Shown here: piece after piece, positions 29,135 to 62,830 of the stretch
Position numbering within the stretch: the stretch's first letter is position 1
Layout: the number at the start of each line of letters is the position of its first letter
Source: Isurus oxyrinchus
Lineage: Eukaryota
Assembly: GCA_026770705.1 (NCBI GenBank)
Contig: JANJGN010000121.1
Location: 1,364,001-1,428,000 of the forward strand
DNA: 64,000 nt
Reading direction: 5' to 3'
Translations under genes and position numbers: made by a program
The notes under the pieces: model-generated
Databases searched by the model: none
The model's input: the letters and a program-made list of their open reading frames with translations, nothing else
What the model was told of the DNA's origin: nothing

Positions 29135-29180
29135 ATGGGAGAGGTCGGTCTGATATTGATCTTCATCAGCTTGCTGCAAG
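29135..29180 (+). CDS. Gene 2 signal peptide exon (acceptor at 29120)
   Basis: aagATGg Kozak; MGEVGLILIFISLLQG|gtacaa; phase 1. Confidence 0.85.
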
Positions 29181-32100
29181 GTACAAATTCATTACTGATC
29201 GGAACTCAGGGAATTGGATTCTTTCCTGGAGTGAGGAAGTGAACATTTAATTTTAGAGAACAGGGTTAGTGATCACACAGAGAGTGAGTGAATAGCGAGT
29301 CAGAGAATATAGCAAAAGAAAAAGACTCATACGGACTCGAAACGTCAACTCTGTTTCTCTCTCCACAGATGCTGTCAGACCTGCTGAGTTTTTCCAGCAT
29401 TTTCTGTTTGTGCATCAGAGAGCTTGTTTCAATAGGAATGACAGTGCATTTATATAGCACCTTTAATGCAGTAAAACATCCTTATTGCGTCACAGGATTC
29501 CCCCACAAGGGGTAACATCCCCTCAGCATCCACCCTGTCAAACCCCCCACCACCTCAGAATCTTATATGTTTCAATAAGATCACCTCTCATTCTTCTAAA
29601 CTCCAATGGATACAGGGCCCAACCTGCTCAACATTTCCTCACAGGACAAACCCCCTTCATCCCAGGAATCAGCCCAGTGAACCTCCTCTGAACTGCCTCC
29701 AATGCAGAGTCTATCCCTCCCTAAGTAAGGAGACCAGAACAGTACACACTGCTCCTGATACAATCTCACCAACGCCCTGTACAGTTGTAGCAAGACTCCC
29801 CTCCTTTTATACTCCATCCCTTTGCAATAAAGGCCAACATTCCACTTGCCTTCCTCATTCTGTGCTGTTCCTGAATGCTGACTTTCTGTGATTCATGTAC
29901 ATGGACACCCAGATCCCTCTGTGTCACATTCTGTAGACTCTCTCCATTGAAGTAATATACTGCTTTTTGATGTCCTGTCCCCTCCCTTGTTGCCTTTCAG
30001 GAGTGACGTCAGAGGGATGGTCTATGAAGGCGCTGCCTCAGAGGGCCATCAGCAGCTCTTGTGTGGTTATTCCGTGTAGCTTTGACTTTCCTTCCCACTC
30101 TTACACAGCACTGCACGGAGCTTGGTATAAATATTGGTATAGATGGAAATATACCATCACATACACCAAAGATCCCAATTATGGGATGGCCACATTCGTG
30201 GGACGTGCTAAAATAATCGGCGACTTGGAAGGGAAGAATTGTTCGGTGAGGATTGACAGTCTCAGAGCTGAAGATAGTGATGTGTATTACTTTTATGTGG
30301 ATGTGGAGGGCTACACAGATCACACTTTTACACAACCAGTCCAACTCCAGGTTCTTGGTAAGTCCCAGTTCCTTTCACACTCAGTCTCTCAGCACAAGGG
30401 GGTCATGTTCTCATCTCAGAGCCAGGCAGTCATGGGTTCAATTCCTGCTCCAGGAGATGTCAGAACAAAGTCCAGGATGTGATCAGGCACAGTACTGAGG
30501 GAGTGCCGCACTGTCAGAGGGTCAGTATTGAGGGAGTGCTGCAGTGTCAAAGGATCAGTACTGAGGGAGTGCTGCACTGTCAGAGGTCAGTGAAAAGGGA
30601 GTGCTGCACTGTCAGAAGGTCAGTACTGAGGGAGTGCTGCAGTGTCGTATGGTCAGTACTGAGGGAGTGCTGCACTGTCAGAGGGTCAGTACTGAGGGAG
30701 TACTGCACTGTCAGAGGGTCAGTACCGAGGGGGTGCTGCACTGTTAGAGTGTCAATACTGAGGGGCTGCTGCACATTCAGAGAGTCAGTACTGATGGGGT
30801 GCTGCACTGTTGGAGGGTCAGTACTGAGGGAATGCTGCACTGTCAGAGGGTCAGTACTGATGGAGTGCTGCACTGTCGAAGGGTAAGTACTGATGGAGTG
30901 CTGCACTGTCAGAAGATCAGTACTGAGTGAGTGCTGCACTGTCAGATGGTCAGTACTGAGGGAGTGCTGCACTGTCAGAAGGTCAGTACTGAGGGGGTGC
31001 CGCACAGTTAGAGTGTCAATACTGAGGGGGTGCTGCACTTTCAGAGAGTCAGTACTGATGGGGTGCTGCACTGTTGGAGGGTCAGTACTGAGGGAGTGCT
31101 GCACTGTCAGAGGGTCAGTACTGAGGGAGTGCTGCACTGTCGAAGGGTCAGTACTGATGGAGTGCTGCACTGTCAGAAGGTCAGTACTGAGGGAGTGCTG
31201 CATTGTCAGAAGGTCAGTACTGAGGGAGTGCTGCACTGTCGGATGGTCAGTACTGAGGGAGTGCTGCACTGTCAGAGGGTCAGTACTGAGGGAGTGCTGC
31301 ACTGTCAGAGGGTCTGTACTGAGGTGGTGCTGCACTGTTAGAGTGTCAATACTGAGGGGGTGCTGCACTTTCAGAGAGTCAGTACTGATGGGGTGCTGCA
31401 CTGTCGGAGGGTCAGTACTGAGGGAGTGCTGCACTGTCAGAGGGTCAGTACTGAGGGAGTACTGCACTATCAGAGTGTCAGTACTGAGGGAGTGCTGCAG
31501 TGTCGGAGTGTCAGTACTGAGGGAGTTCTGCATGGTTGGGGGTCAGTGCTGCGTGAGTGCTCCACAGTCTGAGGATCATTGGCAAAGCAGTGGGTAGTGA
31601 TAAGGAGAGATTGGGCACGAGAGGGGCAGGATCAGGGTGAGGTGGGCAGACACATAGCTGATGCATTTTAGTGCAGTGAAGTGTGAAGTGACGCACTTTG
31701 TCAGGATGAATACAGAAAGATATTGGACACGAACAATTTGGACAAGTGTTGGACAATAGAGACCTGGGTGTCTCTCTGCACACATTCTGAAAGATTAAAG
31801 GGCAACTTGTTGAGGGGATTAAGAAAGCAAATATTTTCCTTGTGTTAACAGACTGAGGAACCGAGTTAAAAGCAAAGAGATCATGCGGGAACTTTATAAA
31901 TCACTGGTTAGAACTCAGCTGGAATATTGTTCAGAACGCTGGGCCTCCACACTTCAGGAAAGATGTAAGAGCTTCAGAAAGGGTGTCAAAGAGGACAAAA
32001 CAGTAAAAACTGGGACATAAGAGTCCTGCTCGAAACTGGTCTTGTATAGCTTAACATATAACACCAGTAAAACTGGGAAATAAGAGTCCTGGTCCAAACT

Positions 32101-35100
32101 GGTCTTGTATAGCTTAATATAGAACACCAGTAAAACTGGGAAATAAGAGTCCTGGTCCAAACTGGTCTTGTATAGAATAATATAGAACACCAGTAAAACT
32201 GGGAAATAAGAGTCCTGGTCTGAGCTGTTTTTTTGCTTCTGGGTGGAGAGGAGATTGAGCAGAATGGGTCCAGGGATGAGGGATTTTAGCTACAAGGTTG
32301 GGTTGGAGAAGCTGGGGTTGTTCTCCTTGGAGCAAAGGAGATTGAGGGGGGATCTGATCGAGGTGTACAAGATGATGATGGGTTTAGATAAGGTAGACAA
32401 AGAGAAGCTGTTGCCATTAGCTGATGGGACAAGGACTGGGGGACACAGATTGAAGGTTGTGGGAAGAGGGGGGATGTGAGGAGGAACTTTTTTACACAGC
32501 GAGTGGTAATGAGCTGGAAATCGCTGCCTACGAGGATGGTGGAAGTGGAGACGATGGGCGATTTCAAAATGAAATTGGACGGACACTTGAGGGAAATAAA
32601 TTCGCAGGGATACGGGGATAGAGGAGGGGGAATGGGACTGATTGGATTGGTCTACAGAGTGACAGCATGGACTCGATGGGCTGAATGGCCTCCTTCTGTG
32701 TTCTGAGTGTCTGTGACCCTATTGAAAAATCAAAGGACAAATCAAATCTCTTTTCTACTTGTCTGTTAACATCTGGAACTTTCTATTACAGATGTTCCAG
32801 ATAAGCCAGTTATTGTGCTCCTGAAGGATTTACAGGAGGGCACTCCTGCACATATCATCTGTAAATGCCTCGACACCTGCCCTGATAACCACCCCAATCT
32901 AACCTGGAGTGAATTGCTGACTTCCTCGGTCAGCACCATCACAGAGAACGGTGGTGAGGTTTCTGCTCTACTGACCTTTAACCCTTCGTTCAAGCATCAT
33001 GGACGAACTCTCCGCTGTACCTGTGACTACCCTCAAACCAGCCATCGAGTGGTCAACTCAGTTACTCTGAGTGTAAAGTGTAAGTATTGGTTAGAACATC
33101 CTGCTTGTGATGGAGGGGGAGTCAGTCTCCTATTAAATCAGGCATTGGAGAAGGTGCAAGTGGGATTGACATGGATGATCTCCGAACTGAGAGGTTATAA
33201 CTAACAGGAAAGACTGAACAAGCTGGTATTCTTGTCTCTAGAAAAGAGAAGGCTGAGGGGGTGACCTGATCGAGGTCCTTAAAATGATGAAACGGTTTCG
33301 ATAGGGTAGATGTAGAGAAGATGTTTCCACTTGTTGGAGCGAGGCCAGAACTAGGATCCATCAATATAAGATAATCATTAATAAATCCAGTGGGGAATTC
33401 AGGAGAAACTTCTTTACCCAGAGAGTGGGGAGAATGTGGAAGTCGCTCCCACAGGGAGTGGTAAAGGTGAATAGTATCGATGTATTTAAGGGATAAACAC
33501 ATGAGGGAGAAAGTAAGAAAAGGTTATGGGGATGGGGTGAGATAGCCACTTGTAGACTCGCTGTAATTCTGTGTGACATCATCTGCTGGTGAGGAACACA
33601 GTGCAGTTTGTACAGGTGCTAGTGTTGGAGCTGTATCCAGTCCATGATTCAAAACAGACCCTATCCCAATCTGGATGTTACACCTCATCAGTTCACTCTT
33701 TTTTTCATTCTTTTCTGGGATGTGGCCATTACTGGCTGGGGCCAGCATTTATCACCCATTCCTAATTGTCCCTTTGGAAGGTGGTGGTGAGCTGACTTCT
33801 GGGACTGCTGCACAGCATGTAGTGAAGGTGCACCAAAAGTGCTTCCTGGAGAGTGTTCTAGGATTTTGACCCAGAAACAATGAAGTAACAGTGAAATCGT
33901 TCCAAGTCAGGATGGTGTGTGGCTTGGAGGGGAACTTACAGGTGGTGATGTTCCCATGTATCTGCTGCCCTTGTCCTTATAGGTTTCAGAGGTCATGCGT
34001 TGGAAGGTGCTGTCTTAAGAGCCTTGGTGAGTTGCTGCAGTGCATCTTGTAGATGGTACACATTGCTGATAATGTGCGTCATTGGTGGAGGGAGTGAATG
34101 TTGAAGATGGTGGTTGGGATGCCGATCAATTGGGCTTTGTCCTGGATGGTGTCGAGTTTCTTGGGTGTGTTGGAGCAGCACTCATCCTGGCAACTGGAGA
34201 GAATTCCATCACACTCCTGACTTTAGCTCAGTGTTTAATGTGTTGATAATTTTGTATTTGAAAGATTCTCCTCACAACACGTCTGTCAGGCTGACACGGG
34301 AAAAAGGAAAGATGATTTCTCTAAGTTGTTCCAGTGATGGGAATCCAGCAGTCCACAATTTCACCTGGTTTAAGATCCCCCAAGGCAAGGTGACAAATCT
34401 GGTGCTCACTGGTCAAACTATTACAGTTCCTTATGGATTCGATGAGGAAATCTCCTACTACTGTGAAGCAACAAGTATCCTGGGCAGTTCCCAGTCTCTG
34501 CCCATTAAAATTCCCACTGAATGTGAGTACTTTTTTTATTCATACATGCGATGAAGGTGTCACTGGCTAGACCAACATTTATTGCCCATCCCAAATTATA
34601 CTGGAACAGAGAGGCTTAGTGGGCCATTTCAGAGGATATTGAGGAGTCAACCACGTTGCTGTGGGTCTGGAGTCACATGTAAGGCCAGACCAGGTAAGGA
34701 CAGCAGATTTACCTCCCTAAAGGACATTAGTGAACCAGATGGGGTTTTAACGACAATTGGCAATGTTTTCATGGTCAACAATAGACTTTCAATTACAGAT
34801 TCTCATTGAATTGGTTGGAAAGTGGACATTTGAACACTATGGCCACAATTTGTCCACAATTATCTGTTGCCAGCCAATCAGCACCCTCTTCTCATGCAGT
34901 ATAATTTGTTATCCCTTTGAGATTTGGTAATCTTGCAATTCTGTCCTGATGAGTGAAAGATGAAAAGCTTTGACAGAATGTCTCCTTTTTCACCAATGCT
35001 CAGGTTCTGTCCTGCCAAGTGACTGTAAACATCGTCTTCTGTAAATCAAAATCCTGAATACACTCGTAAATGACTAACATATCATTCCTGGTACACAAAT

Positions 35101-38100
35101 CAGAGAAAGTTAGTATGCAGGTGCAGCAAGTGGTTAGGAAGGCAAATGGAACATTGGTGTTTATTGCAAGGGAGCTTGAGTGTAAAAGTAGGGACACATG
35201 TAACAACTGTACAGGCTATTGGTGAGACTGCATCACGAGTACTGTGTACAGTCTTGGCTTCTGACATAGAAAAGATGTGCCGAATGTGCAGCTGTAGACT
35301 ACCTGTAATTCTGTGTAACATTACCTGCTGGTGATGAATACAGTGCAGTTTGTACATGTGCTAGTGTTGGAGCTGTATCCAGTCCATGATTATATAAAGA
35401 GACTATTCAAATCTAGACTTTAAACCTCATGAGTTTGCCCATATTTAGTTCATTCACAGGATGTGGGAGCTGCTGATATGGGCGACATTAATTGCCCATC
35501 CCTAATAACCCCTTGTCCTGACCTGCTGCAGTCCACATGCTGTACGTATATCCACAGTGCTGTTAGGGAGGGAGTTCCAGGATTTTGACCCAGCGAAAGT
35601 GAAGGAACGGCCGATATATTTCCAATTCAAGATGGTGAGAGGCTTGGTGGGGAACTTGCAGGTGGCGTTGTTCCCATTTTCCTGCTGCCCTTGTTCTTCT
35701 AGGTGTTAGGGATTGGAAGGTGCTGTTCAAGGAGCCTAGGTGTGCTGTTACATTGCATCTTGTAGACGGTACACACTGCTACCACTGTGCATTCATGGTG
35801 GAGGGAGTGAATGTTGAAGATGGTGGGTGGGATGCCGTTCAAGTGGGCTGCTTTGTCCTGGATGGTGTCCAGCTTCATGAGTGTTGTTGGAGCTGCACTC
35901 ATCCCGGCAAATGGAGAGTGTTCCATCACACTCCTGACTTTAGCTCAGTGGTTAATGTGTTGATAATTTTGTATTTGAAAGATTCTCCTCACAACACGTC
36001 TGTCAGGCTGACACGGGAAAAAGGAAAGGTGATTTCTCTAAGTTGTTCCAGTGACGGGAATCCAGCAGTCCACAATTTCACCTGGTTTAAGATCTCCCAA
36101 GGAAAGGTGACGAATCTGGTGCTCGCTGGTCAAACTATTACAGTTCCTTATGGATTCGATGAGGAAATTTCCTACTACTGTGAAGCAACAAGTATCCTGG
36201 GCAGTTCCCAGTCTCTGCCCATTAGAATTCCCACTGAATGTGAGTACTTTTTTTATTCGTTCATGGGATGAAGATCTCACTGGCTAGACCAACATTTATT
36301 GCCCATCCCAAATTACCCTGGAACTGAAAGGCTTGCTGGGCCATTTCAGAGGTCATTGAAGAGTCAACCACATCTCTGTGGGTCTGGACCTGCATGCAGG
36401 CCAGACCAGGTAAGGACGGCAGATTTTCCTCCCTAAAGGACATTAGTGACCCTGATGGGTTTTTAATGACAATCGGTAATGTTTTCATGGTCATCGTTAG
36501 AAATTCAATTCCAGGTCCTAATTGAATTGGTTGGCAAGTGGACATTTGACACTTTATCCACAATTTGCCCTCAATTATCTGCTTTCCAGGCAATCAGCAC
36601 CACCTCCTCATGCAATCTCAATTGTTGTTCCCTTTGAGATTTGGTATTCTTGCAATTCTGTCCTGATGAGTGAAAAATGAAAAGCTTTGACAGAATGTCT
36701 CCTTTCTCACCAACGCTCAAATTTTTTACTGCCAAGTGACTATAAATATCTTCTTCTGTAAATTCTCCTGAATGCTCTCCCAATTGACTAATATATAATT
36801 TCTGGTACATGAAACATAGAAGGTTCGTATGCAGGTGCAGCAAGTGTTTAGGAAGGCAAATGGAATGTTGGTGTTTATTGCAAGGGAGATTAAGTAAAAG
36901 TATTAGGGATGTAGGGTGGAGGTGTACAGGTTCTTTTTGAGACTGCATCAGGAGTACTGTGTATAGTCTTGGCTTCTGACATAGAAAAGATGGGCTGAAT
37001 GCGCAGTTGTAGACTACCTGTAATACTGTGTAACATTATCTGCTGGTGAGGAATACAGTGCAGTTTGTACTTGTGCTAGTGTTGGAGCTGTATCCAGTCC
37101 ATGATTATATAAAGAGACTATTCAAATCTAGATTTTAAACCTCATGAGTTTGCCCATATTTAATTCATTTGATGATATGGGCAACATTTATTAGCCATCC
37201 TTAATTACCCCATGAGCCACTGTATTCAACTGCTGCAGTCCATGTGCTGTAGGTACACCCACAGCAATGTTAGGGAGGGAGTTCCAGGATTTTGACCCAG
37301 TGACAGTGAAGGAATGGCGATAGATTTCCAAGTCAGGATGGTGAGTGGCTTGCAGGGGATCTTGCAGGTGGCATTGTTCCTACCTATCTGCTCCCCTTGT
37401 CCTACTTGATGTTAGGGTTTGGAAGGTGCTGTTCAAGGAGCCTTGGTGAGCTGTTGCAGTGCATCTTGTAGATGGTACACACTGCTGCCACTGTGCACCA
37501 GGGAGTGAATGTTGACTATGGTGGGTGGGGTACCGTTCAAGTGGGATGCTTTGTCCTGGATGGTGTCGAGCTTCCTGAGTGTTGCTGGAGCCGCACTCAT
37601 CCCGGCAACTGGAGAGTTTTCCATCACACTCCTGACTTTAGTTCAGTGGTTAATGTGTTGATAATTTTGGATTTGAAAGATTCTCCTCATAACACGTCTG
37701 TCAGGATGACACTGGAAAAAGGAAAGATGATTTCTCTAAGTTGTTCCAGTGACGGGAATCCACCAATCCACAATTTCACCTGGTTTAAGAGCTCCCAAGG
37801 AAAAGTGATGAATTTGGTGCTCGCTGGTCAAACTATTACAGTTCCTTCTGGATTCGATGAGGAAATCTCCTACTACTGTGAAGCAACAAGTATCCTGGGC
37901 AGTTCCCAGTCTCTGCCCATTAGAACTCCCACAGAATGTGAGTAATTTTTTTATTCGTTCATGGGATGGAGGTGTCACTGACTAGACCAACATTTATTGC
38001 CCATCCCAAGTTACCCTGGAACAGAGTGGCTTGGTGGGCCATTTCAGAGGGTATTGAAGAATCAACCACATTGCTGCAGTCACAGGTACGCCAGAGCAGG

Positions 38101-41100
38101 TAAGGACAGCAGATTTCCCTCCCTAAAGGACATTAGTGACCAAGATGGGGTTTTAACGACAATCAGCACTGTTTTCATGGTCATCATTAGACTTTCAATT
38201 CCAGATTCTAATTGAATTGGTTGGCAAGTGGACATTTGACCACTTTGGCCACAATTGGTCCACAATTATCTGTTGCCAGCTAATCAGCACCCTCTTCTCA
38301 TGCAGTATCAATTGTTGTTTCCTTTGAGATTTGGTATTCTGGCAATTCTGTCCTGATGAGTGAAAGATGAAAAGCTTTGACAGAATGTCTCCTTTCTCAC
38401 CAATGCTCAGGTTCTGTGCTGCCAAGTGATTGTAAACATCATCTTCTGTAAATCAGAATCCTGAATACTCTCTCCAATGACTAACACATCATTCCTGGTA
38501 CACGAACCAGAGAAAGTTAGTATGCAGGTGCAGCAAGTGGTTAGGAAGGCAAATGGAACGTTGCTGTTTATTGTAAGGGAGCTCGCGTGTAAAAGTAGGG
38601 ACGCATGTTACAACTGTACAGGCTCTTGGTGAGTCTGCATCACGAGTACTGTGTACAGTCTTTGATTCTGACATAGAAAAGATGGGCCAAATGTGCAGCT
38701 GAAGGCTACCTGTAATACTGGGTAATGTTATCTGCTGGTGAGGAATACAGTGCAGTTTCTACTTGTGCTAGTGTTGGAGCTGTATCCAGTCCATGATTAT
38801 ATAAAGAGACTATTCAAATCTCGATTTTACACCTCATGAGTTTGCCCATATTTAATTCATTCACAGGATGTGGGAGCTGCTGATATGGGTAACATTTATT
38901 GCCTATCCTTAATTACCCCTTGTCCTGACCTGCTGCAGTCCATGTGCTGTACGTATACCCACAGTGCTGTTAGGGAAGGGGTTCCAGGATTTTGACCCAG
39001 CGATAGTGAAGGAACGGCCGATACATTTCCAATTCAGGATGGTGAGAGGCTTGGCGGGGAACTTGCAGGTGGCATTGTTCCCATGTATCTGCTGCCCTTG
39101 TTCTTCTGGTATTAAGGAATGGAAGGTGCTGTTCAAGGAGCCTTGGGGAGCTGTTGCAGTGCATCTTGTAGATGGTACACACTGGACATTCATGGTGGAG
39201 AGAGTGAATGTTGTAGATTGTGGGTGGGATGACGTTCAAGTGGGCTGTTTGTCCTGGATGGTGTCGAGCTTCCTGAGTGTTGCTGGAGCCGCACTCATCC
39301 AGGCAACTGGAGAGTGTTCCATCACACTCCTGACTTTAACTCAGTTATTAATGTGTTGATAATTTTGTATTTGAAAGATTCTCCTCACAACACGTCTGTC
39401 AGGATGACACTGGAAAAAGGAAAGATGATTTCTCTAAGTTGTTCCAGTGAAGGGAATGCAGTAGTCCACAATTTCACCTGGTTTAAAATCTCACAAAGAA
39501 AAGTGACGAATCTGGCACTCGCTGGTCAAACTATTACAGTTCCTTATGGATTTGAAGAGCAAATCTCCTACTACTGTGAAGCAACAAGCATCCTGGGCAG
39601 TTCCCAGTCTCTGCCCATTAGAATTCCCTCTGAATGTGAGTACTTTTCTTCATTTGTTCATGGGATGGAGGTGTCACTGGCTAGACCAACATTTATTGCC
39701 CATCCCAAATTACCCTGGAACTGAATGGCTTGCTGGGCCATTACAGAGTGTATTGAAGAGTCAACCACATCTCTGTGGGTCTGGACTTGCATGTAGGCCA
39801 GACCAGGTAAGGACAGCAAATTTCCCTCCCTAAAGAACATTAGTGACCCAGATAGGTTTTTAACGACAATCGGTAATGTTTTCATGGTCATCGTTAGAAT
39901 GTCAATTCCAGATTCTCATTGAATTGGTTGGCAAGTGGGCATTTGACACTTTATCCACAATTTGTCCACAATTATCTGCTTGCCAGCTAATCAGCACATT
40001 CTCCTCATGCAGTATCAATTGTTGTTCCCTTTCAGATTTGGTATTCTTGCAATTCTGATGAGTGAAAGATGAAAAGCTTTGACAGAATGTCTCCTTTCTC
40101 ACCAATGCTCAGGTTCTGTGCTGCCAAGTGACTATAAACATCGTCTTCTGTAAATCAGAATCCTGAATACTCTCTCCAATGACTAACACATCATTCCTGG
40201 TACATGAATCATAGAAAGTTAGTATGCAGGTGCAGCAAGGTGTTAGGAAGGCAAATGGAACGTTGGTGTTTATTGTAAGCAAGCTTGGGTGTAAAAGTAG
40301 GGATGCATGTTACAACTCTATAGGCTCTTGGTGAGACTGCATCAGGAGTACTGTGTACAGTCTTGGCTTCTGACATAGAAAAGATGGGCCGAATGCGCAG
40401 CTGTAGACTACTTGTAATTCTGTGTAACATTATCTGCAGGTGAGGAATACAGTGCAGTCTGTACATGTGCTAGTGTTGGATCTGTATCCAGTCCATAATT
40501 ATATAAAGAGACTATTCAATTCTAGATTTTAAACCACATGAGTTTGCCCATATTAAATTCATTTGCTGATATGGGCAACATTTATTGCCCATCCCTAATC
40601 ACTCCATGTGCTGTAGGTACACCCACAGCAATGTTAGGCAGGGAGTTCCAGGATTATGACCCAGTGACAGTGAAGGAAATGACGATAGATTTCCAACTCA
40701 GGATGGTGTGTGGATTGGAGGGGAACTTGCAGGTGGTTGTGTTCCCATGAACAGATGCCCTTGTCCTTCTAGATGTTAGAGGTGATAGGTTTGGAAGGTG
40801 CTTTTCAAGGAGCCTTGGTGAGCTGTTGCAGTGCATCTTGCAGATGGTACACACTGCTGCTACTGTGCATTCAAGGTGGAGGGAGTGAATGTTGAAGATG
40901 GTGGGTGGGATGCCAATCAAGTGGGCTGCTTTGTCCTGGATGGTGTCGAGCTTCATGAGTGTTGTTGGAGCTGCACTCATCCCGGCAACTGGAGAGTGTT
41001 CCATCACACTCCTGACTTTAGCTCATTGGTTAATGTATTGATAATTTTGTATTTGAAAGATTCTCCTCGCAATACGTCTGTCAGGATGACATGGGAAAAA

Positions 41101-44100: not shown

Positions 44101-47100
44101 GAGAGAGACTTGGTTATCGTGGCTGTACTTAGCACCTTTCCTGGCCATGTGTGACTGCCCCTCAATGCTTCCCGGGAAGTGCTGGTCACCGCTTGGACGG
44201 CCAGAGATGAGTGCGCTGCATGGCTGCCCTCTCAACCCGTGACATGCGGGACACTGGTCCAAACCGAGATGCTGAGAGACCTGACAGAGTTTTGTCTGTG
44301 GAAGTCAGAGGCTTGTAACATCAAAGCAGCTGTAAGCCTACACCTGTCTGCAAAGGAACCAAAGTGAAAGGAACCTCATTTGGAATTTGTGAGGTTAAAA
44401 TGCTTTGCCTGGTGTCTGCTTAAAGTCTATGGGTTGTCTTAGAGGAGATTAGTTTGGGAATTTGATAAAAAGTTTTGATCATTGTAACTTTTAGCCATGT
44501 GTCTATATTTAACTTGTTATAAGTTGGCAAAGTTAGTTTGATATAAAAACCTCTAGAGAACCGGTGGTCTTATTCCTGAATTTTGAGCTGCATCTCAAAC
44601 ATTCCACTGGGAAATATAGGTTTTAACAGTTGTTTAAAGTTCCCCTCTGGGATTTTAAACCACAGCTTTTACCAACTGCTGTATTGTAACATCTATAAAT
44701 GTTACATAGATTACATCGATAAATATTATATATAAATATTACAAAGATTACATCGATAAATATTACATATAAATATTAGATAGGTTATATGGAAATGCAA
44801 GAAGTTTATTCATAAATTGCTTAGAAATTCCTGAAACTCTCAACAGCCAATGAAGCAGTTTTGAAGTGAGCTCACTGTTGTATTGTTGGAAACGCAGCTA
44901 CTGATTTGTGCACAGCAAGATTCCAACAATCAGCATTGTGGTAATGAACTGATAATCGATTATTTTAGTGAGGTTAGTTGATTCATACAAAGAGATTACA
45001 TTTAGGAGGTGGATCACTAATAACCTTTTAGGGAGGGAAACCTGTCTGGGTGTATATGTGACTCCAGTCTCAAACACCAATGTAATTAACTCTGACCTGC
45101 CCTCTGAACTGGTCTCCCAGTTTGGGACAAACCAGTGGTTCAGGAGGAAGACCCCCCACCACCTTCTCAAGGGGAAACTAGGGATGGACAATAAATATCA
45201 GCATTGCCCGAGAATGAGTATTTAAACATTGAGTGAGTGTATCGCTTCTCGAGATACATCGGAGCATCATTCTAAACCTGTAGTGCAGTAATTAATGGCT
45301 GTTTTTACAGGTAGAGACTGCAGTAAATGGACAGTAGGATTGCTCACGGCTGGGATCATGTTGAGTGTTTTCCTGGCTGGAATCTTCATCTTCATCTGTG
45401 TGAGAAAGTAAGTCTGAAGATTTAACTTGATTTTAATATAAACATTTGCTTCAATGTTCTTTCCTTAAGTCGGTGATTGTTTCCCTTGGGATCAGCACCA
45501 GGTCCCTCTCGGTAAGTGGTCCCTGTGTCCACTCTGATCCGGAGAGAACCTTTCATTGTCCTGTATCCAGGTAAACAATCACGAGACCCAGAGATTCCTC
45601 ACTCTGCACGATTACTCCTGGATAAATATTTGCTTCAATGTTCTTTCCTGAAGTCGGTGATTGTTTCCCTTGTGTTAAGCGCCAGATGCCTCTCCGTAAC
45701 TGGTCTCTTTGTCCCTTATGATCCAGAGAGTGTTTTTCATTGCCCGTTATCCAGATGAATAATAATCAGTTGCTGTGATCTGGAAGGTGCTGCCTGAAAG
45801 GGAGGTGGAAGCAGATTCAATAGGAACTTTCAAAAGGGGAATTGGATAAATACTTGAAGGGACAAAATTTGAAGGGCTATGGGGGCAAGAGTAGGGGTGG
45901 AGGGGGGGTCAAAGATATGGCATGTTATTATAATGATATTATACCTTGGGCTTATTTACTGTACAAGACACAAAGCACCAATCGCACACAGGGATTGGGT
46001 GAGAATGTTATGGGCTCGTTTATCAAGAACAGTTATACATACGGATAAAGCTTGGAGGCATCAGAGCTGTGAGTGTGTGCTCTGCTCAAAGCAAAAGTGA
46101 AACTAAGATTGGATCACATGACACACTTCCATTATAGTGATGTCACGCTGATATCCCTTATTGGAACTAGAGACAGTCCAGTCATTGGTGTAAGGTTACA
46201 GTGGGCTCTGTGTCTGTGCTGCACTGACTCTCTGCTATATGATAACCACAGTGTGATATTGTGTTATTGCAGGAGAAAGACAGCGATGGAGGAGAGAGTT
46301 TCAGGGACCAGAGACATTGCATTGACCCCCAGTCCACTCTCTGTGAAGCAGCAGGTACAGGAGCTGTTTACACTCACTCCAAAGCTTCAACCCCAGTGTG
46401 TAGACAACACGTGTCCCAGATTCTCAGCCAGGTTACCCACTGACTTCTAACTGTGGAGTCAGCAATGGCTCAGTTTTTAGCATTGTCTCTTGCTCTCTCT
46501 CTCTCTCCCTCAGTCTCTCTTTCTCCAGAAACCTGAGCACAAAAATGCCGATACATCTGAGGTCAGCACTGGGGGAGAGCAACACAGAAGGAGAATCAGT
46601 ACTGAGGGTGTGCTGCACCATTGGAGGGTCAGTAATGAGAGAGTGATGCATTGGAGAAGGCTCAGTACTGAGAGAGTGCTGCACTGTCAGAGGGTCAGTA
46701 CTGAGAGACTGCTGCACTATCGGAGGGTCAGTACTGAGGGGGTGCTGCACTGTCGGAGGGTCAGAACTGAGGGAGTGCTGCACTGTCGGATGTTCAATAC
46801 TGAGGGAGCGCCGCACTGTTGGAGGGTCCATATTGAAGGAATGCTGCCCTCTCGAAGGGGCAGTTCCAAGGGAGTGCCGCACTGTCAGGAGCCAGCACTG
46901 AGAGAACGTTGCATTGTTCAAAGTGCCATCTTGCAGAACAGTTGTGTAATGCTGACCATGTTAACCGTCTCAGGTGGGCATATAAGATCCAACATTATAG
47001 CAGTGACACACTTCAATAAAATTCCTTCATTGGCGTGAGGTGTTTTGGATGCCTGTGTTTGTGATGAATGGAGCACAAATCTCACGATTCAGATGGTAAC

Positions 47101-47524
47101 TAGGACTTCCAGACTCAGGTGAGCAAGAGAGAGAGAGAGAGAGGGAAAGAGAGAGAGCGAAAAAAGGGTTAAACCCACTGAGCCACGACTGACACTAACG
47201 AGGCTGCACAATAATTTAACCCTATCAGTGCCAGTAAATGATGTGAGGATGTCTTCTGTTTCCATTTCTCTGTAGGATGAACAGAACATGCTGATTACTG
47301 AGCCCCGGGACACAACCAGAGACACAACTAGTGAGGGGCAGACCCCAGCTCCCCGGGGTCTCTCTGAAAGTCCAGTGGGAGGCGATGCTGGACATGGGAA
47401 CCCCGACAATCCCGACGACATTCTCTACGCCAACATCAACTTTTCAAAGCTGCCCAGCGGTGACAGGACTGTGCACAGGAGCGAGGACACGGAATACACA
47501 CTGATTGGATTCCAGAAAAACTGA
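29135..47524 (+). CDS. Gene 2: complete Siglec-family (CD22-like) receptor, 7 Ig domains (V + 6 C2), TM, ITIM + ITSM, about 802 aa
   Basis: Exons 29135-29180, 30001-30357, 32792-33079, 34265-34522, 35982-36239, 37680-37937, 39378-39635, 41060-41317, 45311-45407, 46273-46354, 47276-47524 sum to 2409 nt with consistent phases. Siglec hallmarks: CVVIPCSF, GR..GD...NCS in the V-set and an extra Cys (TCP) in domain 2. Confidence 0.88.
29320..29410 (+). mobile_element. Short Penelope-like terminal fragment (duplicate at about 54697-54787)
   Basis: ggactcGAAACGTCaactctgtttctctctccacagatgctg...ccagcattttctg. Confidence 0.5.
29510..29965 (-). mobile_element. CR1 LINE fragment (duplicate at about 54890-55340)
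   Basis: EYKRRGVLLQLYRALVR...CVLFWSPYL. Confidence 0.8.
30001..30357 (+). CDS. Gene 2 Siglec-type V-set exon
   Basis: GWSM...SCVVIPCSFDFP...GAWYK...FVGRAKIIGDLEGKNCSVRIDSLRAEDSDVYYFYVD...LQVL; ctttcag| ... |gtaagt. Confidence 0.92.
30490..31570 (+). repeat. 33-bp minisatellite behind a tRNA-derived SINE head (paralog at about 55867-56375)
   Basis: About 32 units; B-box-like GGTTCAATTCC at about 30435. Confidence 0.92.
31575..32705 (+). mobile_element. CR1 LINE fragments (duplicate at about 56585-57575)
   Basis: LEKLGLFSLEQRRLRGDLIEVYKMM; RNFFTQRVV. Confidence 0.8.
32001..32222 (+). repeat. 63-bp tandem repeat, about 3.5 copies (about 1.5 copies at 57005-57100)
   Basis: ccagtaaaactgggaaataagagtcctggtccaaactggtcttgtatagc at 32064, 32127 and 32190. 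Confidence 0.9.
32792..33079 (+). CDS. Gene 2 Siglec domain 2 (C2-set) exon
   Basis: DVPDKP...EGTPAHIICKCLDTCPDNHPNLTW...LTFNPSFKHHGRTLRC...LSVK; 288 nt, phase 1-1. Confidence 0.9.
33125..33545 (+). mobile_element. CR1 LINE 3' fragment (duplicate at about 58000-58425)
   Basis: gaaaagagaaggctgaggggtgacct...aggagaaacttctttacccagagagt. Confidence 0.75.
34265..34522 (+). CDS. Gene 2 Ig C2 exon B1
   Basis: 258 nt; YSPHNTSV...LSCSSDGNPAVHNFTWFK...YYCEATSILGSSQS. Confidence 0.88.
34938..34979 (+). ncRNA. Minimal type I hammerhead ribozyme motif, copy 1 (Penelope-like)
   Basis: attctgtc CTGATGA gtgaaagat GAAA agct TT gacagaat; perfect 8-bp stem I, palindromic AAGCTT stem III. Confidence 0.7.
35982..36239 (+). 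CDS. Gene 2 Ig C2 exon B2
   Basis: 258 nt, aag/gtgagt, open frame. Confidence 0.88.
36655..36696 (+). ncRNA. Hammerhead motif copy 2
   Basis: Core and stems intact; loop II variant. Confidence 0.68.
37680..37937 (+). CDS. Gene 2 Ig C2 exon B3
   Basis: 258 nt, aag/gtgagt, open frame. Confidence 0.88.
38345..38386 (+). ncRNA. Hammerhead motif copy 3
   Basis: Same motif as copy 1. Confidence 0.7.
39378..39635 (+). CDS. Gene 2 Ig C2 exon B4
   Basis: 258 nt, aag/gtgagt, open frame. Confidence 0.88.
40052..40088 (+). ncRNA. Hammerhead motif copy 4 (5-nt deletion destroys stem I)
   Basis: aatt-CTGATGA...; core present, 5' strand of stem I lost. Confidence 0.5.
41060..41317 (+). CDS. Gene 2 Ig C2 exon B5
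   Basis: 258 nt, aag/gtgagt, open frame. Confidence 0.88.
41728..41769 (+). ncRNA. Hammerhead motif copy 5
   Basis: Same motif as copy 1. Confidence 0.7.
41791..42900 (+). mobile_element. Harbinger Myb/SANT accessory gene remnant, 5'-truncated
   Basis: QCRKRMNDLLRSTS|gtaagt (41791-41832), then ag|DKLAHNRRGRSQTGGEMSEIKALTELENRVIQLAG (from 42063). Confidence 0.7.
42940..44070 (-). pseudogene. Harbinger (HARBI1-like) DDE transposase remnant
   Basis: LPVPVTVTVVLNF...GDLCGISQ; GFP...DCTHV; ERRYNEAQAATRNLV; LKMWLRCLD...VSHIVIVCCALYN plus acidic tail; frameshifted. Confidence 0.85.
44265..44691. mobile_element. LTR-like 3' fragment
   Basis: Ends in tgtaaca; resembles the 3' part of the 20785-21697 element. 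Confidence 0.4.
45311..45407 (+). CDS. Gene 2 transmembrane exon
   Basis: [33 protein letters not shown]; near-identical to 18418-18514. Confidence 0.85.
46273..46354 (+). CDS. Gene 2 cytoplasmic exon 1
   Basis: [27 protein letters not shown]; phase 2-0. Confidence 0.78.
47276..47524 (+). CDS. Gene 2 terminal exon with ITIM (ILYANI) and ITSM-like (TEYTLI) motifs
   Basis: tgtag|GAT GAA CAG... open for 83 codons to TGA. Confidence 0.88.
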   Translation, partial: DEQNMLITEPRDTTRDTTSEGQTPAPRGLSESPVGGDAGHGNPDNPDDILYANINFSKLPSGDRTVHRSEDTEYTLIGFQKN

Positions 47525-54511: not shown

Positions 54512-54557
54512 ATGGGAGAGGTCGGTCTGATATTGATCTTCATCAGCTTGCTGCAAG
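54512..54557 (+). CDS. Gene 3 signal peptide exon
   Basis: Same peptide as 29135-29180. Confidence 0.85.
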
Positions 54558-57500
54558 GTACAAATTCATTACTGATCGGAACTCAGGGAATTGGATTCTT
54601 TCCTGGAGTGAGGAAGTGAACATTTAATTTTAGAGAACAGGGTTAGTGATCACACAGAGAGTGAGTGAATAGCGAGTCAGAGAATTTAGCAAAAGCAAAA
54701 GCCTCATACGGACTCGAAATGTCAACTCTGTTTCTGTCTCCACAGATGCTGTCAGACCTGCTGAGTTTTTCCAGCATTTTCTGTTTGTGCATCAGAGAGC
54801 TTGTTTCAATAGGAATGACAGTGCATTTATATAGCACCTTTAATGCAGTAAAACATCCTTATTGCTTCACAGGATTCCCCCACAAGGGGAAACATCCCCT
54901 CAGCATCCACCCTGTCAAACCCCCCACCACCTCAGAATCTTATATGTTTCAATAAGATCACCTCTCATTCTTCTAAACTCCAATGGATACAGGGCCCAAC
55001 CTGCTCAACATTTCCTCATAAGACAAACCCCCTTCATCCCAGGAATCAGCCCAGTGAACCTCCTCTGAGCTGCCTCCAATGCAGAGTCTATCCCTCCCTA
55101 AGTAAGGAGACCAGAACTGTACACACTGCTCCTGATACAATCTCACCAACGCCCTGTACAGTTGTAGCAAGACTCCCCTCCTTTTATACTTCATCCCTTT
55201 GCAATAAAGGCCAATATTCCACTTGCCTTCCTCATTCTGTGCTGTTCCTGAATGCTGACTTTCTGTGATTCATGTACAAGGACACCCAGATCCCTCTGTG
55301 TCGCATTCTGTAGACTCTCTCCATTGAAGTAATATTCTGCTTTTTGATGTCCTGTCCCCTCCCTTGTTGCCTTTCAGGAGTGACGTCAGAGGGATGGTCT
55401 ATGAAGGCGCTGTCTCGGAGGGCCATCAGCAGATCTTGTGTGGTTATTCCGTGTAGCTTTGACTTTCCTTCCCACTCTTACACAGCACTGCACGGAGCTT
55501 GGTATAAATATTGGTATAGATGGAAATATACCGTCACATACACCAAAGATCCCAATTATGCGATGGCCACATTCGTGGGACGTGCTAAAATAATCGGCGA
55601 CTTGGAAGGGAAGAATTGTTCGGTGAGGATTGACAGTCTCAGAGCTGAAGACAGTGATGTGTATTACTTTTACGTGGATATGGAGGGCTACACAGATCAC
55701 ACTTTTACACAACCAGTCCAACTCCAGGTTCTTGGTAAGTCCCAGTTCCTTTCACACTCAGTCTCTCAGCACAAGGGGGTCATGTTCTCATCTCAGAGCC
55801 AGGCAGTCATGGGTTCAATTCCTGCTCCAGGAGATGTCAGTACAAAGTCCAGGATGTGATCAGGCGCAGTACTGAGGGAGTACTGCACTGTCAGGGTCAG
55901 TAATGAAGGAGTGCACTGTCAGAGGATCAGTACTGAGAGAGTGCTGCACTGTCAGAAGGTCAGTACTGAAGGATTGCTGCACTGTCACAGGGTTAGTACT
56001 GAGAGAGTGCCGCACTGTCGGAGGGTCAGTAGTGAGGGAGTGCTGCACTGTTGGAGGGTCAGTACTGAGGGAGTGCTGCACTGTCACAAGGTCTGTAGTG
56101 AGAGAGTGCTGCGCTGTCGGAGGGTCAGTACTGAGGAAATGCTGGACTGTCAGAGGGTCAGTACTGAGGGAGTGTTGCACTGTTGGAGGGTCAGGGCTGA
56201 GGGATTGCTGCACTGTCAGAGGGTCATTACTGATGGGGTGCTGCACTGTTGGAGGGTCAGTACTGAGGGAGTGCTGCAGTGTCGGAGTGTCAGTACTGAG
56301 GGAGTGCTGCACATTTGGAGGATCAGTACTGAGGGAGTGCTGCAGCGTTGGAGGGGTCAGTGCTGAGTGACTGCTGCACAGACTGAAGATCATTACTTGT
56401 GTCAAAAAGTTTTAGTTTAATTTTTGTTACAACTTATGCAGCAACTGCACCACATCCCCATGTGTTAACTGGAGCATGTCAGCCTGGAGTTACATGGAAT
56501 TCCAGAGCAGAATCTGCTATCATAGATTGAAGCTGGCATCACTAAGTGTCCCTCAGTGATGATCTTTTCTGATGGAATGAAACTTGGAAAAGCAGTGGGT
56601 AGTGATAAGGAGAGATTGGGCACGAGAGGGGCAGGATCAGGGTGAGGTGGGCAGACACATGGCTGATGCAGTTCAGCGCAGTGATATGTGAAGTGACGCA
56701 CTTTGTCAGGATGAATACAGAAAGTTATTGGACACGAACAATTTGGACAAGTGTTGGACAATAGAGACCTGGGCGTCTCTCTGCACACATCCTGAAAGAT
56801 TAAAGGGCAACTTGTTGAGGGGATTAAGAAAGCAAATATTTTCCTTGTGTTTATAGACTGAGGAACCGAGTTAAAAGCAAAGAGATCATGCTGGAACTTT
56901 ATAAATCACTGGTTAGAACTCAGCTAGAATATTGTTCAGAACCCTGGGCCCCCACACTTCAGGAAAGATGTAAGAGCTTTAGAAAGGGAGCCCAGGAGGA
57001 CAGAACAGTAAAAACTGGGACATAAGAGTACCGCTCCAAACTGGTCTTGTATAGCTTAACATATAACACCAGTAAAACTGGGAAATAAGAGTCCTGGTCT
57101 GAACTGTTTTTTTGCTTCTGGGTGAGGAGGAGATTAAGCAGAATGGGTCCAGGGATGAGGGATTTTAGCTAGAAGGTTGGGTTGGAGAAGCTGGGGTTGT
57201 TCTCCTTGGAGCAAAGGAGATTGAGGGGGGGGGATCTGATCGAGGTGTACAAGATGATGACGGGTTTAGATCAGGTCGACAAAGAGAAGTTCTTGCCATT
57301 AGCTGATCATACAAGGACTGGGGGACACAGATTGAAGGTTTTGGGCAGTGGGGAATGTGAGGAAGAACTTTTTTACACAGCGAGTGGTAATGAGCTGGAA
57401 CTCGCTGCTATGAGGATGGTGGAAGTGGAGACAATGGGCGATTTCAAAATGAAATTGGATGGACACTTGAGGGAAATAAATTTGCAGGGATAGAGGAGGA

Positions 57501-60500
57501 GGAATGGGACTGATTGGATTGCTCTGCAGAGAGACAGCATGGACTCGATGGGCTGAATGGCCTCCTTCTGTGTTCTGAGTGTCTGTGACCCTATTGAAAA
57601 ATCATAGCACAAATCAAATCTCTCTTCTACTTGTCTGTTAACATCTGGAACTTTCTATTACAGATGTTCCAGATAAGCCAGTTATTGTGCTCCTGAAGGA
57701 TTTACAGGAGGGGACTCCTGCACATATCATCTGTAAATGCCTCTACACCTGCCCTGATAACCACCCCAATCTAACCTGGAGTGAATTGCTGACTTCCTCG
57801 GTCAGCAACATCACAGAGAACGGTGGCGTGGTTTCCGCTCTACTGACCTTTAACCCTTCGTTCAAGCATCATGGACGAACTCTCCGCTGTACCTGTGACT
57901 ACCCTCAAACCAGCCATCGAGTGGTCAACTCAGTTACTCTGAGTGTAAAGTGTAAGTATTGGTTAGAACATCCTGCTTGTGATGGAGAGGGAGTCGGTCT
58001 CCTATTAAATGAGGCATTGGAGAAGGTGCAAGTGGTATTGACAAGGACGATCCCAGAACTGAGAGGTTATAACTAACAGGAAAGACTGAACAAGCTGGGA
58101 TTCTTTCCTCTAGAAAAGAGAAGGCTGAGGGGGTGACCTGACTGAGGTCTTTAAAATGATGAAAGTGTTTCGATAGGGTAGATGTAGAGAAGATGTTTCC
58201 ACTTGTCGGAGTGAGGCCAGAACTAGGATCCATCGATATAAGATAATCACTAATAAACCAAAGGGGAATTCAGGAGAAACTTCTTTACCCAGAGAGTGGT
58301 GAGAATGTGGAACTCGCTCCCACAGCGAGTGGTCGAGGTGAATAGTATCGATGTATTTAAGGGGTGAGTTGGATAAACATATGAGGGCGAAAGCAAGAAA
58401 AGGTTATGGGGATGGGGTGAGATATCCACTCATAGACTCGCTGTAATTCTGTGTAACATCATCTGCTGGTGAGGAACACAGTGCAGTTTGTACAGGTGCT
58501 AGTGTTGGAGCTGTATCCAGTCCATAATTCAAAACAACCCTATCCCAATCTGAATGTTAAACCTCATCAGTTCACTCTTATTTTCATTCTTTTTTGGGAT
58601 GTGGCCATTACTGGCTGGGCCCAACATGATAAATGATAAACCGAATCCTAATTGTCCCTTAGGAAGGTGGTGGTGAGCTAACTTCTTGGACTGCTGCAGA
58701 GCAAGTAGTGAAGGTGCACCAAAAGTGCTTCCTGGAGAGCGTTCTAGGATTTTGACCTGGCAACAATGAAGTAACAGTGAAACTGTTCCAAGTCAGGCTG
58801 CTGTGTGGCTTGGAGGGGAACGTGCAGGTGGTGATGTTCCCATGTATCTGCTGCCCTTGTCCTTCAAGGTTTCAGAGATCATGAGTTTGGAAGGTGCTGT
58901 TCAAGGAGCCTTGCTGAGTTGCTGCAGTGCATCTTGTAGATGGTACACACACTGCTGCCACTGTGCTTTCATGGAGGAGGGAGTGAATATTGAAGATGTT
59001 GGGTGAGATGCCATTCAAGTGGGCTGCTTTGTCCTGGATGGTGTTGAGCTTCTTGAGTGTTGTTGGAGCCACACTCATCTAGGCAAGTGGAGAGTGTTCC
59101 ATCACACTCCTGACTTATCTTGTGTTTAATGTGTTGATAATTTTGTATTTGAAAGATTCTCCTCGCAAGACATCTGTCAGGATGACACTGGAAAAAGGAA
59201 AGATGATTTCTCTAAGTTGTTCCAGTGATGGGAATCCAGCAGTCCACAATTTCACCTGGTTTAAGATCTCCCAAGGCAAGGTGACAAATCTGGAGCTTGC
59301 TGGTCAAACTATTACAGTTCCTTACGGATTTGAAGAGGAAATCTCCTACTACTGTGAAGCAACAAGTATTCTGGGCAGTTCCCAGTCTCTGCCCATTAGA
59401 ATTCCCACTGAATGTGAGTAATTTTTTTATTCATTCATGGGATGGAGGTGTCACTGGCTAGACCAACATTTATTGCCCATCCCAAATTACCCTGGAACAG
59501 AGTGGCTTGCTGGGCCATTTCAGAAGTCATTGAAGAGTCAACCACATTGCTGTGGGTCTGGAGTCATATGTAGGCCAGACCAGGTAAGGACGGCAGATTT
59601 CCCTCCCTAAAGGACATTAGTGACCCAGATGGGGTTTTAACGACAATCGGCAATGTTTTCATGGTCATCATTAGACTTTCAATTCCAGATTCTAATTGAA
59701 TTGGTTGGCAAGTGGACATTTGACCACTTTGGCCACAATTGGTCCACAATTGTCTGTTTACCTGTCAATCAGCACCCTCTACTCATGCAGTATCAATTGT
59801 TGTTCCCTTTGAGATTTGGCATTCTTGCAATTCTGCCCTGATGTGTGAAAGATGAAAAGCTTTGACAGAATGTCTCCTTTCACACCAATGCTCAGGTTCT
59901 GTGCTGCCAAGTGACTGTAAACATCGTCTTCTGTAAATCAGAATCCTGAATACTCTCTTAAATGACTAACACATCATTCCTGGTACATGAATCGTAGAAA
60001 GTTAGTATGCAGGTGCAGCAAGGTGTTAGGAAGGCAAACCTGGAATGTTGGTGTTTATTGCAGAGCTTGAGTGTAAAAGTAGGGACGTATCATATTCTAC
60101 AACCGTACAGGCTCTTGGTGAGATTGCATCAAAAATACTGTGTACAGTCTTGGCTTCTGACATAGAAAAGATGGGCCAAATGTGCAGCTGAAGGCTACCT
60201 GTAATACTGTGTAACATTTTCTGCTGGTGAGGAATACAGTGCAGTTTGTACTTCTGCTAGTGTTGGAGCTGTATCCAATCCATGATTATATAAAGAGACT
60301 ATTCAAATCTAGACTTTAAACCTCATGAGTTTGCCCATATTTAATTCATTCACAGGATGTGGGAGCTGCTGATATGGGCAACATTTATTGCCCATCCCTA
60401 ATTACCCTTTGTCCTGAACTGCTGCAGTCCATGTGCTGAACGTATACCCACAGTACTGATAGGGAGGGAGTTCCAGGATTTTGACCCAGCAATAGTGAAG

Positions 60501-62830
60501 GAATTGCGATAGATTTCCAAGTCAAGATGGTGAGTGGCATGGTGGGGAACTTGCAGGTGGCGTTGTTCACATTTTTCTCCTGCCCTTGTTCTCCTAGGTG
60601 TTAGGGTTTGGAAGTTGCTGTTAAAGGAGCCTTGGTAAGCAGTTGTAGTGCATCTTGTAGATGGTACACACTGCTGCCACTGTGCATTCATGGTGGAGGG
60701 AGTGAATGTTGAAAATGATGGGTGGGATGCCGCACAAGCGGGCTGCTTTGTCCTGGATGGTGTCGAGTTTCTTGAGTGTTGTTGGAGCCACACTCATCCA
60801 AGCAAGTGGAGAATATTCCATCACACTCCTGACTTTAGCTCAGTGGTTAATGTGTTGATAATTTTGTATTTGAAAGATTCTCCTCACAATACGTCTGTCA
60901 GAATGACACTGGAAAAAGGAAAGGTGATTTCTCTAAGTTGTTCCAGTGACGGGAATCCAACAGTCCACAATTTCACCTGGTTTAAGATCTCCCAAGGCAA
61001 GGTGACAAACCTGGATCTCGCTGGTCAAACTATTACAGTTCCTTATGGATTTGATGAGGAAATCTCCTACTACTGTGAAGCAACAAGTATCCTGGGCAGT
61101 TCCCAGTCTCTGTCCATTAGAATTCCCACTGAATGTGAGTACTTTTTTTATTCGTTCATGGGATGAAGATCTCACTGGCTAGACCAACATTTATTGCCCA
61201 TCCCAAATTACCCTTGAACTGAGTGGCTTGCTGGGCCATTTCAGAGGTCATTGAAGAGTCAACTACATCTCTGTGGGTCTGGAGTCACATGTAGGCCAGA
61301 CCAGGTAAGGATGGCAGATTTCCCTCCCTGAAGGACATTAGTGACCGAAATGGGTTTTTAACGACAATTGGCAATGATTTCAAGGTCATTGTAAGACTTT
61401 CAATTCCAGATTCTAATTGAATTGGTAGGCAAGTGGACATTTGACCACTTTGGCCACAATTTGTCCATAATTATCTGCTTGCCAGCCAATCAGCACATTC
61501 TCCTCATGCAGTATAAATTGTTGTTCCATTTGAGATTTGGTATTCTTGCAATTCTGTCCTGATGAGTGGAAGATGAAAAGCTTTGACAGAATGTCTCCTT
61601 TCTCACCATTGCTATGGTTTTCTTCTGCCAAGTGACAATAAATATTGTCTTCTGTAAATCAGAATCCTGAAAACCTTCTTAAATTACTGACACAACGTCC
61701 CTGGTGCAGCAAGTGCTTAGGAAGACAAATGAAACATCGGTGTTTATTGCAAGGGAGCTTGGCTGTAAAAGTAGGGATGTATACAATACTGCAACTGTAC
61801 AGGCTCTTGGTGAGACTGCATCAGCAGTACTGTGTACAGTCTTGGCTTCTGACATAGAAAAGATGGGCCGAGGGTGCAGCTGAAAGCTACCTGTAATTCA
61901 GTGTAACATAATCTGCTGGTGAGGAATATAGGGCAGTTTGTACATCTGCTAATGTTGGAGCTTTATCCAGTCCACGATTATATAGAGTCTATTCATATTT
62001 AGATTTTGAATCTCATGCGCTTGCTCATATTTAATTCATTCACAGGATGCAGGCGTTGCTGATCTCGGCAACATTTAGTGCCCGTCCCTAATTACCCATT
62101 GAGCCGTTGTCTTGAACGGCTGCAGACCATGTGCTGTAGGTACACAGACACTGCTTTTAGGGAGGGAGTTCCAGGATTTTGACACAGCAACAGTGAAGGA
62201 ATGGCAATAGATTTCCAAGTCAGGATGGTGAGTGACTTGGAGTGGATCTTGCAGGTGGCGTTGCTCCCTTCTTATTGCTGTCCTTGTCCTTCTAGATGTT
62301 AGGGTTTAGAAGGTGCTGTTCAAGGAGCCTTGGTGAGCTGTTGCAGTGCATCTTGTAGATGGTACACACTGCTGCCACTGTGCACTCACAGTGGAGGGAG
62401 TGAATGTTGAAGATGATGGGTGGGATGCCGCTCAAGTGGGCTGCTTTGTCCTGGATGGTGTTGAGCTTCTTGAGTGTTGTTGGAGCTGCACTCATCCAGG
62501 CAAATGAAGAGTATTCCATCACACTCCTGACGAGCTCAGTGATTAATGTGTTGATAATTTTGTATTTGAAAGATTCTCCTCACAACACGTCTGTCAGGAT
62601 GACACTGGAAAAAGGAAAGGTGATATCTCTAAGTTGTTCCAGTGACGGGAATCCTGCAGTCCACAATTTCACCTGGTTTAAAATCTCCCAAGGAAAGGTG
62701 ATGAATCTGGCGCTCGCTGGTCAAACTATTACAGTTCCTTATGGATTCGAAGAGGAAATCTCCTACTACTGTGAAGCAACAAGTATCCTTGGCAGTTCCC
62801 AATCTCTGCCCATTAGAATTCCCACAGGAT
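54512..62830 (+). CDS. Gene 3 (3'-partial): recent paralog of gene 2, Siglec/CD22-like
   Basis: Exons 54512-54557, 55378-55734, 57664-57951, 59156-59413, 60877-61134, 62573-62830; the repeat unit continues to the window end. Confidence 0.87.
55378..55734 (+). CDS. Gene 3 V-set exon
   Basis: 357 nt; 6 aa differences from gene 2. Confidence 0.92.
57664..57951 (+). CDS. Gene 3 domain 2 exon
   Basis: 288 nt; 3 aa differences from gene 2. Confidence 0.9.
59156..59413 (+). CDS. Gene 3 Ig C2 exon B1
   Basis: 258 nt, open frame. Confidence 0.88.
59830..59871 (+). ncRNA. Hammerhead motif copy 6 (core mutant CTGATGT)
   Basis: A9 to T and a stem I mismatch. Confidence 0.5.
60877..61134 (+). CDS. Gene 3 Ig C2 exon B2
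   Basis: 258 nt, open frame. Confidence 0.88.
61551..61592 (+). ncRNA. Hammerhead motif copy 7
   Basis: Core and stems intact; loop II variant. Confidence 0.68.
62573..62830 (+). CDS. Gene 3 Ig C2 exon B3
   Basis: 258 nt, open frame. Confidence 0.88.

Follow-up and report, generated by a model that had tools for sequence, protein, structure and literature searches.

A tyrosine at the Siglec arginine position is conserved in a lineage of Siglec-like receptor genes of sharks and rays

The window, that is, the whole 64-kb stretch of Isurus oxyrinchus DNA analysed here, carries three tandem genes, all on the + strand. Gene 2 was modelled with 11 exons and 802 codons, all splice sites being AG/GT, and encodes a signal peptide, a V-set domain, a domain 2 (D2), five C2 repeats (7 Ig domains), a transmembrane segment and a tail specified by two cytoplasmic exons. 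Pfam placed V-set above its cut-off on the V exon, and Ig_CD22 slightly under it. The features of genes 2 and 3 are as follows, in window coordinates.

29135..29180, + strand: gene 2 signal-peptide exon, coding part (gene model; one contig of run X6 links it to the V exon)
30001..30357, + strand: gene 2 V-set exon (Pfam, phmmer, gene model, contigs)
30123..30152, + strand: gene 2 C strand and CC' motif WYKYWYRWKY, residues 41-50, conserved in the clade and containing WxxW
30294..30296, + strand: gene 2 F-strand codon TAT for Tyr98, where canonical Siglecs have Arg (phmmer alignment; F strand of the model 93-102)
32792..33079, + strand: gene 2 domain-2 exon (TCP cysteine 32878-32880; record 25 of run X6 connects it with V)
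34265-34522, 35982-36239, 37680-37937, 39378-39635 and 41060-41317, + strand: gene 2, five 258-nt C2-type repeat exons
45311..45407, + strand: gene 2 transmembrane exon (hydrophobic span without a charged residue)
46273..46354, + strand: gene 2 first cytoplasmic exon (gene model)
47276..47524, + strand: gene 2 last exon (ITIM-like ILYANI 47420-47437; ITSM-like TEYTLI 47489-47506)
54512..54557, + strand: gene 3 signal-peptide exon (gene model)
55378..55734, + strand: gene 3 V-set exon (gene model)
55500..55529, + strand: gene 3 C strand and CC' motif, identical to the gene 2 sequence
55671..55673, + strand: gene 3 Tyr98 codon TAC (codon read directly)
57664..62830, + strand: gene 3, a domain-2 exon at 57664-57951 plus three exons for C2 repeats; the gene continues past the window end

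Both reading frames are clean, as the first-pass annotation had described them: gene 2 is open across its 802 codons, and gene 3 across its 6 exons inside the window. The same annotation took both genes for inhibitory receptors. The sequence supports this for gene 2, whose model is that of a type I membrane protein that has C2 domains and a tail bearing ITIM/ITSM-like motifs; the tail of gene 3 lies outside the window, hence the description applies to gene 2 only. The V exons of genes 2 and 3 are recent duplicates, with 350 of 358 bases identical and flanking introns 98-99% identical. The V exons show 6 non-synonymous and 2 synonymous differences, none of them at an invariant site, and are conserved no better than the introns.

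In gene 1, the stretch 645-17600 holds a tandem array of at least 16 Ig exons that are nearly identical to one another and differ in repeat type from those of genes 2 and 3. Its V exon precedes the window, and its transmembrane and tail exons are common to genes 2 and 3. The last exon of gene 1 (20243-20492) has 250 nt against 249 in gene 2. The additional base, close to 20320, puts the exon out of frame and brings a stop ahead of ILYANI/TEYTQI, leaving the tail as assembled without an ITIM; the frameshift is either a real allele or an assembly error.

In contigs of runs that we guess to be RNA, the V exon continues without introns into the signal and D2 exons, while contigs of two other runs read through introns. 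The intron-less V contigs point to spliced transcripts of the gene family, not necessarily of the window copy; contigs may derive from paralogues or related species, and none of the runs containing the exon is catalogued as RNA. At codon 98 the only change listed is synonymous, in 4/4 runs. Contigs of runs X1 and X16 diverge from the V exon at position 30290, both running on into one unrelated sequence that they share, which suggests an interrupted paralogue. Contigs of three runs connect C2 repeat 2 to repeat 4 (36239 to 39378) at GT..AG; either an exon is skipped there, or the contigs may stem from a paralogue that has fewer repeats.

The first-pass annotation had noted that the arginine with which Siglecs bind sialic acid is replaced by Tyr in both V-set domains, within DSDVYYFYVD. 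The replacement is real: in the phmmer alignment with known Siglecs, Tyr98 (residue 98 of the 118-aa V exon) stands opposite the Arg of MAG YYFR, sialoadhesin YNFR and Siglec-5 YFFR. The site corresponds to MAG Arg118, by counting along that alignment, and to sialoadhesin Arg97. The two genes cannot be taken as two independent cases, because their V exons differ at only 8/358 bases and their flanks are 98-99% identical; the Tyr is one inherited event. The other hallmarks of Siglecs are kept, namely W6, C20 and C25 (CVVIPC), the NCS with C80, and F97 in place of an F-strand Cys. The D2 TCP cysteine is also present and aligns to MAG DNCP. By sequence, the V domain thus has the B-E intrasheet cysteines without an F-strand Cys, and the additional Cys of V and D2; C20, C25, C80 and the D2 Cys align with those of MAG, the disulfides themselves being predicted. 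Among the aromatic contacts of the A and G strands, W6 is invariant and position 107 is His in 12/15 clade sequences and Tyr in 3/15. Because the defining YxFR arginine is replaced, by Tyr in genes 2 and 3 as well as in 32/32 motif-bearing relatives, we call these proteins Siglec-like rather than established Siglecs.

The predicted structure agrees with the earlier assignment to the Siglec fold. An AF2 model of the V domain built from 79 sequences reached pLDDT 88.7, with residue 98 inside the strand 93-102; it replaced an earlier model from 20 close sequences (pLDDT 64). In a fold search its best matches were sialoadhesin (TM 0.89, rmsd 1.4 A, Z 19.3) and MAG (Z 18.4). On this model, the V domain is a Siglec fold. 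The ESM Atlas returned only generic CD22/CD33-like V clusters, and a homodimer prediction scored 0.08, which speaks neither for nor against pairing.

In order to place the Tyr-type domains among their relatives, we compared 283 V domains, a set made of the best 150 of 605 hits, the proteins of the initial search and the two window domains, and therefore biased toward relatives of the query. In this set Arg was found in 185, Trp in 34, Tyr in 28 and other residues in 36, so that 98/283 are without Arg. The nearest database V domain was from Carcharodon (96%). All 24 of 24 proteins of the initial database search had a Tyr-type domain, and Tyr98 was present in 32/32 stored proteins with W[FY][KE]YWxxWKY (isoforms included) from 16 named species, which cover lamniform, carcharhiniform, orectolobiform, sawshark and sevengill sharks, skates, a stingray, a manta and a sawfish. 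Among the matches listed, of which about 30 of the best 150 hits were identified by name, no holocephalan member was found. When long proteins were searched with a profile, hemicentins made up most of the hits. The clade proteins are otherwise annotated only automatically, as 'CD22-like/MAG-like/sialoadhesin-like'. Several of them have predicted tails without a strict ITIM, some only 16-18 residues long.

Redundancy thinning before the trees left 108 of the 283 domains, and 72 of 182 in a second set; 3 of these 72 rows (two that aligned poorly and one isoform lacking D2) were dropped before the V, D2 and V+D2 trees and the AU test. The elasmobranch Tyr domains formed one clade with 100/100 support in all three trees, the trait column having been removed. 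P0071, which has Tyr at column 98 but falls outside the clade on a long branch, was not counted. Sharks also possess separate Arg-type Siglec-like genes, therefore the Tyr marks one lineage and not a genome-wide loss. Across that lineage the Tyr-type V-D2 head is joined to at least three stalk/transmembrane/tail types with variable numbers of C2 repeats (P0001-P0025, P0285, P0286). A sawshark model, P0024, combines one Tyr-type V with two Arg-type V domains, and is possibly a fused prediction.

These distributions bear directly on neutral decay, in which the Arg was lost, the V domain has no ligand, and the receptor is retained as a spacer or as a scaffold for signalling. Loss of the Arg is frequent, as the 98/283 domains show, and CpG transitions offer an easy path to it. 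Decay nevertheless predicts a variable site, as is seen among the shark Arg-type paralogues (R, K, S), whereas Tyr98 and the surface aromatics are invariant in sharks and batoids despite 63-70% domain identity. By this sequence invariance neutral decay is largely refuted, and we regard it as very improbable. The first-pass annotation had likewise argued against simple decay, and the fixation of Tyr across sharks and batoids bears this out. One of its arguments, that Arg to Tyr needs two substitutions, is weak, because the change from CGY to TAY consists of two CpG-type transitions, and because the available text of PMC7379906 reports this very change, Arg to Tyr, for an orangutan SIGLEC14 sequence.

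The conservation of the clade extends beyond residue 98. In 15 sequences chosen across the Tyr clade, 38 positions are invariant. Among them are Y44, W45, W48, K49, Y50, Y54, Y60 and M62 (15/15), each of which has a frequency of at most 8% in the 185 Arg-type domains. A contrast in aromatic counts, for which the positions were picked after the clade had been seen, is not counted as evidence. The C strand and CC' region carry the clade motif W[FY]KYWxxWKY, always alongside Tyr98. Over segment 42-50, identity was 0.84 in the Tyr clade (n=92 pairs of 55-80% domain identity; 0.67 domain identity), 0.81 in MAG (n=43) and 0.26 in elasmobranch Arg-type multi-V domains (n=86), the last figure inflating the contrast because the shark Arg-type comparison set consists of paralogues. 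In contrast, identity over the G segment 100-109 was 0.52 in the Tyr clade versus 0.89 in MAG. A substitute arginine was sought by alignment along segments C, CC', F and G, and none is conserved there; R47 occurs in 2/15 clade sequences. Judged from these residues, the pocket is rebuilt and not merely broken. The W45-x-x-W48 pair (30135-30146; 15/15 in the clade) fits the WxxW C-mannosylation motif that is described at MAG W22 in the part of PMC5150538 available, but it lies in the CC' loop adjoining the pocket.

MAG was the best V sequence match (PDB 5LFR/5LFV; E 2e-14) and the only D2 match, and it resembles the shark proteins in fold, cysteines, sequon, a similar CC' length and the Tyr/Thr equivalents of Y65 and T128. 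The shark clade differs by Tyr at R118, by the CC' motif, by the relaxed G segment and by the absence of the N-terminal WxxW, and the shark genes have a variable number of C2 repeats and are tandem duplicated. They thus lack two features of MAG orthologues, since there is only one Trp at the N-terminus and R118 is replaced by Tyr. Sialoadhesin (Siglec-1, PDB 1QFO), the top structural match, shares the A-strand Trp; its Arg97 is Tyr in the shark genes, and gene 2 differs from it by its 7 Ig domains and its ITIM/ITSM-like motifs. According to the available text of PMC5150538, MAG (Siglec-4) contacts gangliosides with its F and G strands and with the CC' loop, which is structurally heterogeneous among Siglecs, and R118A abolishes GT1b binding.

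Part of the MAG contact set is kept in the Tyr clade: W22 corresponds to W6 (15/15), Y65 to Y46 (12/15) and T128 to T108 (13/15), and Y127 to H107, the His/Tyr position described above. In addition, K43 and K49 are invariant (15/15). An anionic or sialylated ligand is therefore possible, and one could imagine that the Tyr98 hydroxyl together with Lys49 (or Lys43) takes the place of Arg in a non-canonical binding of sialylated or other anionic, e.g. sulfated, glycans. The kept contact residues W6, Y46, H/Y107 and T108 and the two invariant lysines speak for it, and sialic-acid binders without the conserved Arg are noted in the available part of a review (PMC13358205). The relaxed G segment, however, differs from that of MAG, and K43 should face away from the pocket by V-set strand alternation. 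MAG, Siglec-XII and ape Siglec-5/14 moreover lose binding without the Arg, as far as the available text of these papers reports (PMC5150538, PMC7379906, PMC6288428). We consider this explanation unlikely.

A ligand other than sialic acid is, on sequence grounds, likely for genes 2 and 3, as the first-pass annotation had proposed. The reading we favour, which we hold to be somewhat better than an even bet, is an inhibitory receptor whose GFCC' face is predicted, from sequence and model, to bind a conserved non-sialic ligand. Without the Arg salt bridge, a carboxylate would not be held in the canonical way. By V-set strand alternation, F/Y42, Y44, W45, W48, Y50, Y96 and Y98 would lie together on the GFCC' face as a single aromatic patch. 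This patch might bind a self ligand that evolves slowly, for which a protein surface and an uncharged glycan or lipid are the candidates. Ligand binding would then recruit SHP-type phosphatases to the tail, and gene 2 would signal inhibition through its ITIM-like tail.

A large conserved aromatic patch would suit a protein interface, and it is through the GFCC' face that V domains of Ig proteins usually pair. The aromatic face could accordingly serve self-association or a cis partner (a V-V dimer or a co-receptor) and not be a site for a ligand on another cell. We regard this as quite unlikely: our tests gave it no direct support, and MAG dimerises via Ig4-5, not Ig1, in the available text of PMC5150538.

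A second clade without the Arg, mostly with Trp, was found in bony vertebrates, namely turtles, the Komodo dragon, the tailed frog and other frogs, caecilians, gar, tarpon, carps and percomorphs (P0026, P0133, P0136, P0102, P0108, P0055, P0092, P0028, P0038, P0084 and others). Gly, Ile or Ser also occur in frogs and caecilians, and one carp domain has Arg; the F-strand alignment of the teleost Trp domains is less certain. The clade was supported at 95/94 on V+D2 and 98/93 on V. Like the shark clade, the Trp-type V domains have an aromatic residue at the Arg site (34/283), an aromatic at position 44 and tails with tyrosine motifs; unlike it, they have Trp and not Tyr, a CC' motif WYQY..RGYP, and only 20-35% identity to it. 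The aromatic at position 44 is found in 31/34 Trp-type, 26/27 Tyr-type and 4/185 Arg-type domains, counts in which related sequences are not independent. We found no paper describing these domains, which are known as database 'CD22-like/MAG-like' predictions.

The trees differ on how the two clades are related. The Tyr and Trp clades are sisters in V-only trees (SH 87; 92/81), but this grouping dissolves once the pocket columns are removed, in a tree from which two further long branches were taken out. It is absent from the D2-only tree, which lacks resolution here, and from the V+D2 tree, where the Tyr clade groups with MAG and a paddlefish protein (94/93, unstarred), a clustering that V-only trees do not show. 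An AU test did not reject a single Tyr and Trp clade (p 0.21). One ancient origin and convergence are both compatible with these trees. It is possible, though we think it doubtful, that the two clades represent one Siglec-derived lineage as old as jawed vertebrates, which traded the Arg for an aromatic cage (98, Tyr44, Tyr96) and reads a conserved non-sialic self signal. If this were true, the lineage would be a parallel arm of the Siglec system overlooked by mammal-centred work.

Loss of the Arg alone is a known phenomenon, because it has been reported in primate Siglecs: the available text of PMC7379906 and PMC6288428 describes human Siglec-XII R122C and a polymorphic Arg-to-His change in ape Siglec-5/14. 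These are recent, partly polymorphic losses, often with null alleles, as those sources present them, whereas the shark Tyr is fixed in 16 species and accompanied by a new conserved loop. In the available part of a paper on fish Siglecs only Siglec1, CD22, MAG and Siglec15 are treated, and sharks are not mentioned (PMC7226832). We found no description of the elasmobranch Tyr lineage in a literature search largely confined to the main text of papers free of subscription.

Collectively, our results bear on how Siglecs without the Arg are viewed, since the known ones have hitherto been seen as accidents of primate evolution, recent and in decay. The divergence of sharks from rays dates to about 270-300 million years ago. 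A Tyr kept since before that split, together with a newly conserved loop, suggests that the V domain of Siglecs can be turned to a different ligand and then maintained by selection. Y98, Y44, W45, W48 and K49 are defined residues with which to hunt for this ligand, and many non-mammal proteins annotated as 'MAG-like', 'CD22-like' or 'sialoadhesin-like' may not be sialic-acid lectins.
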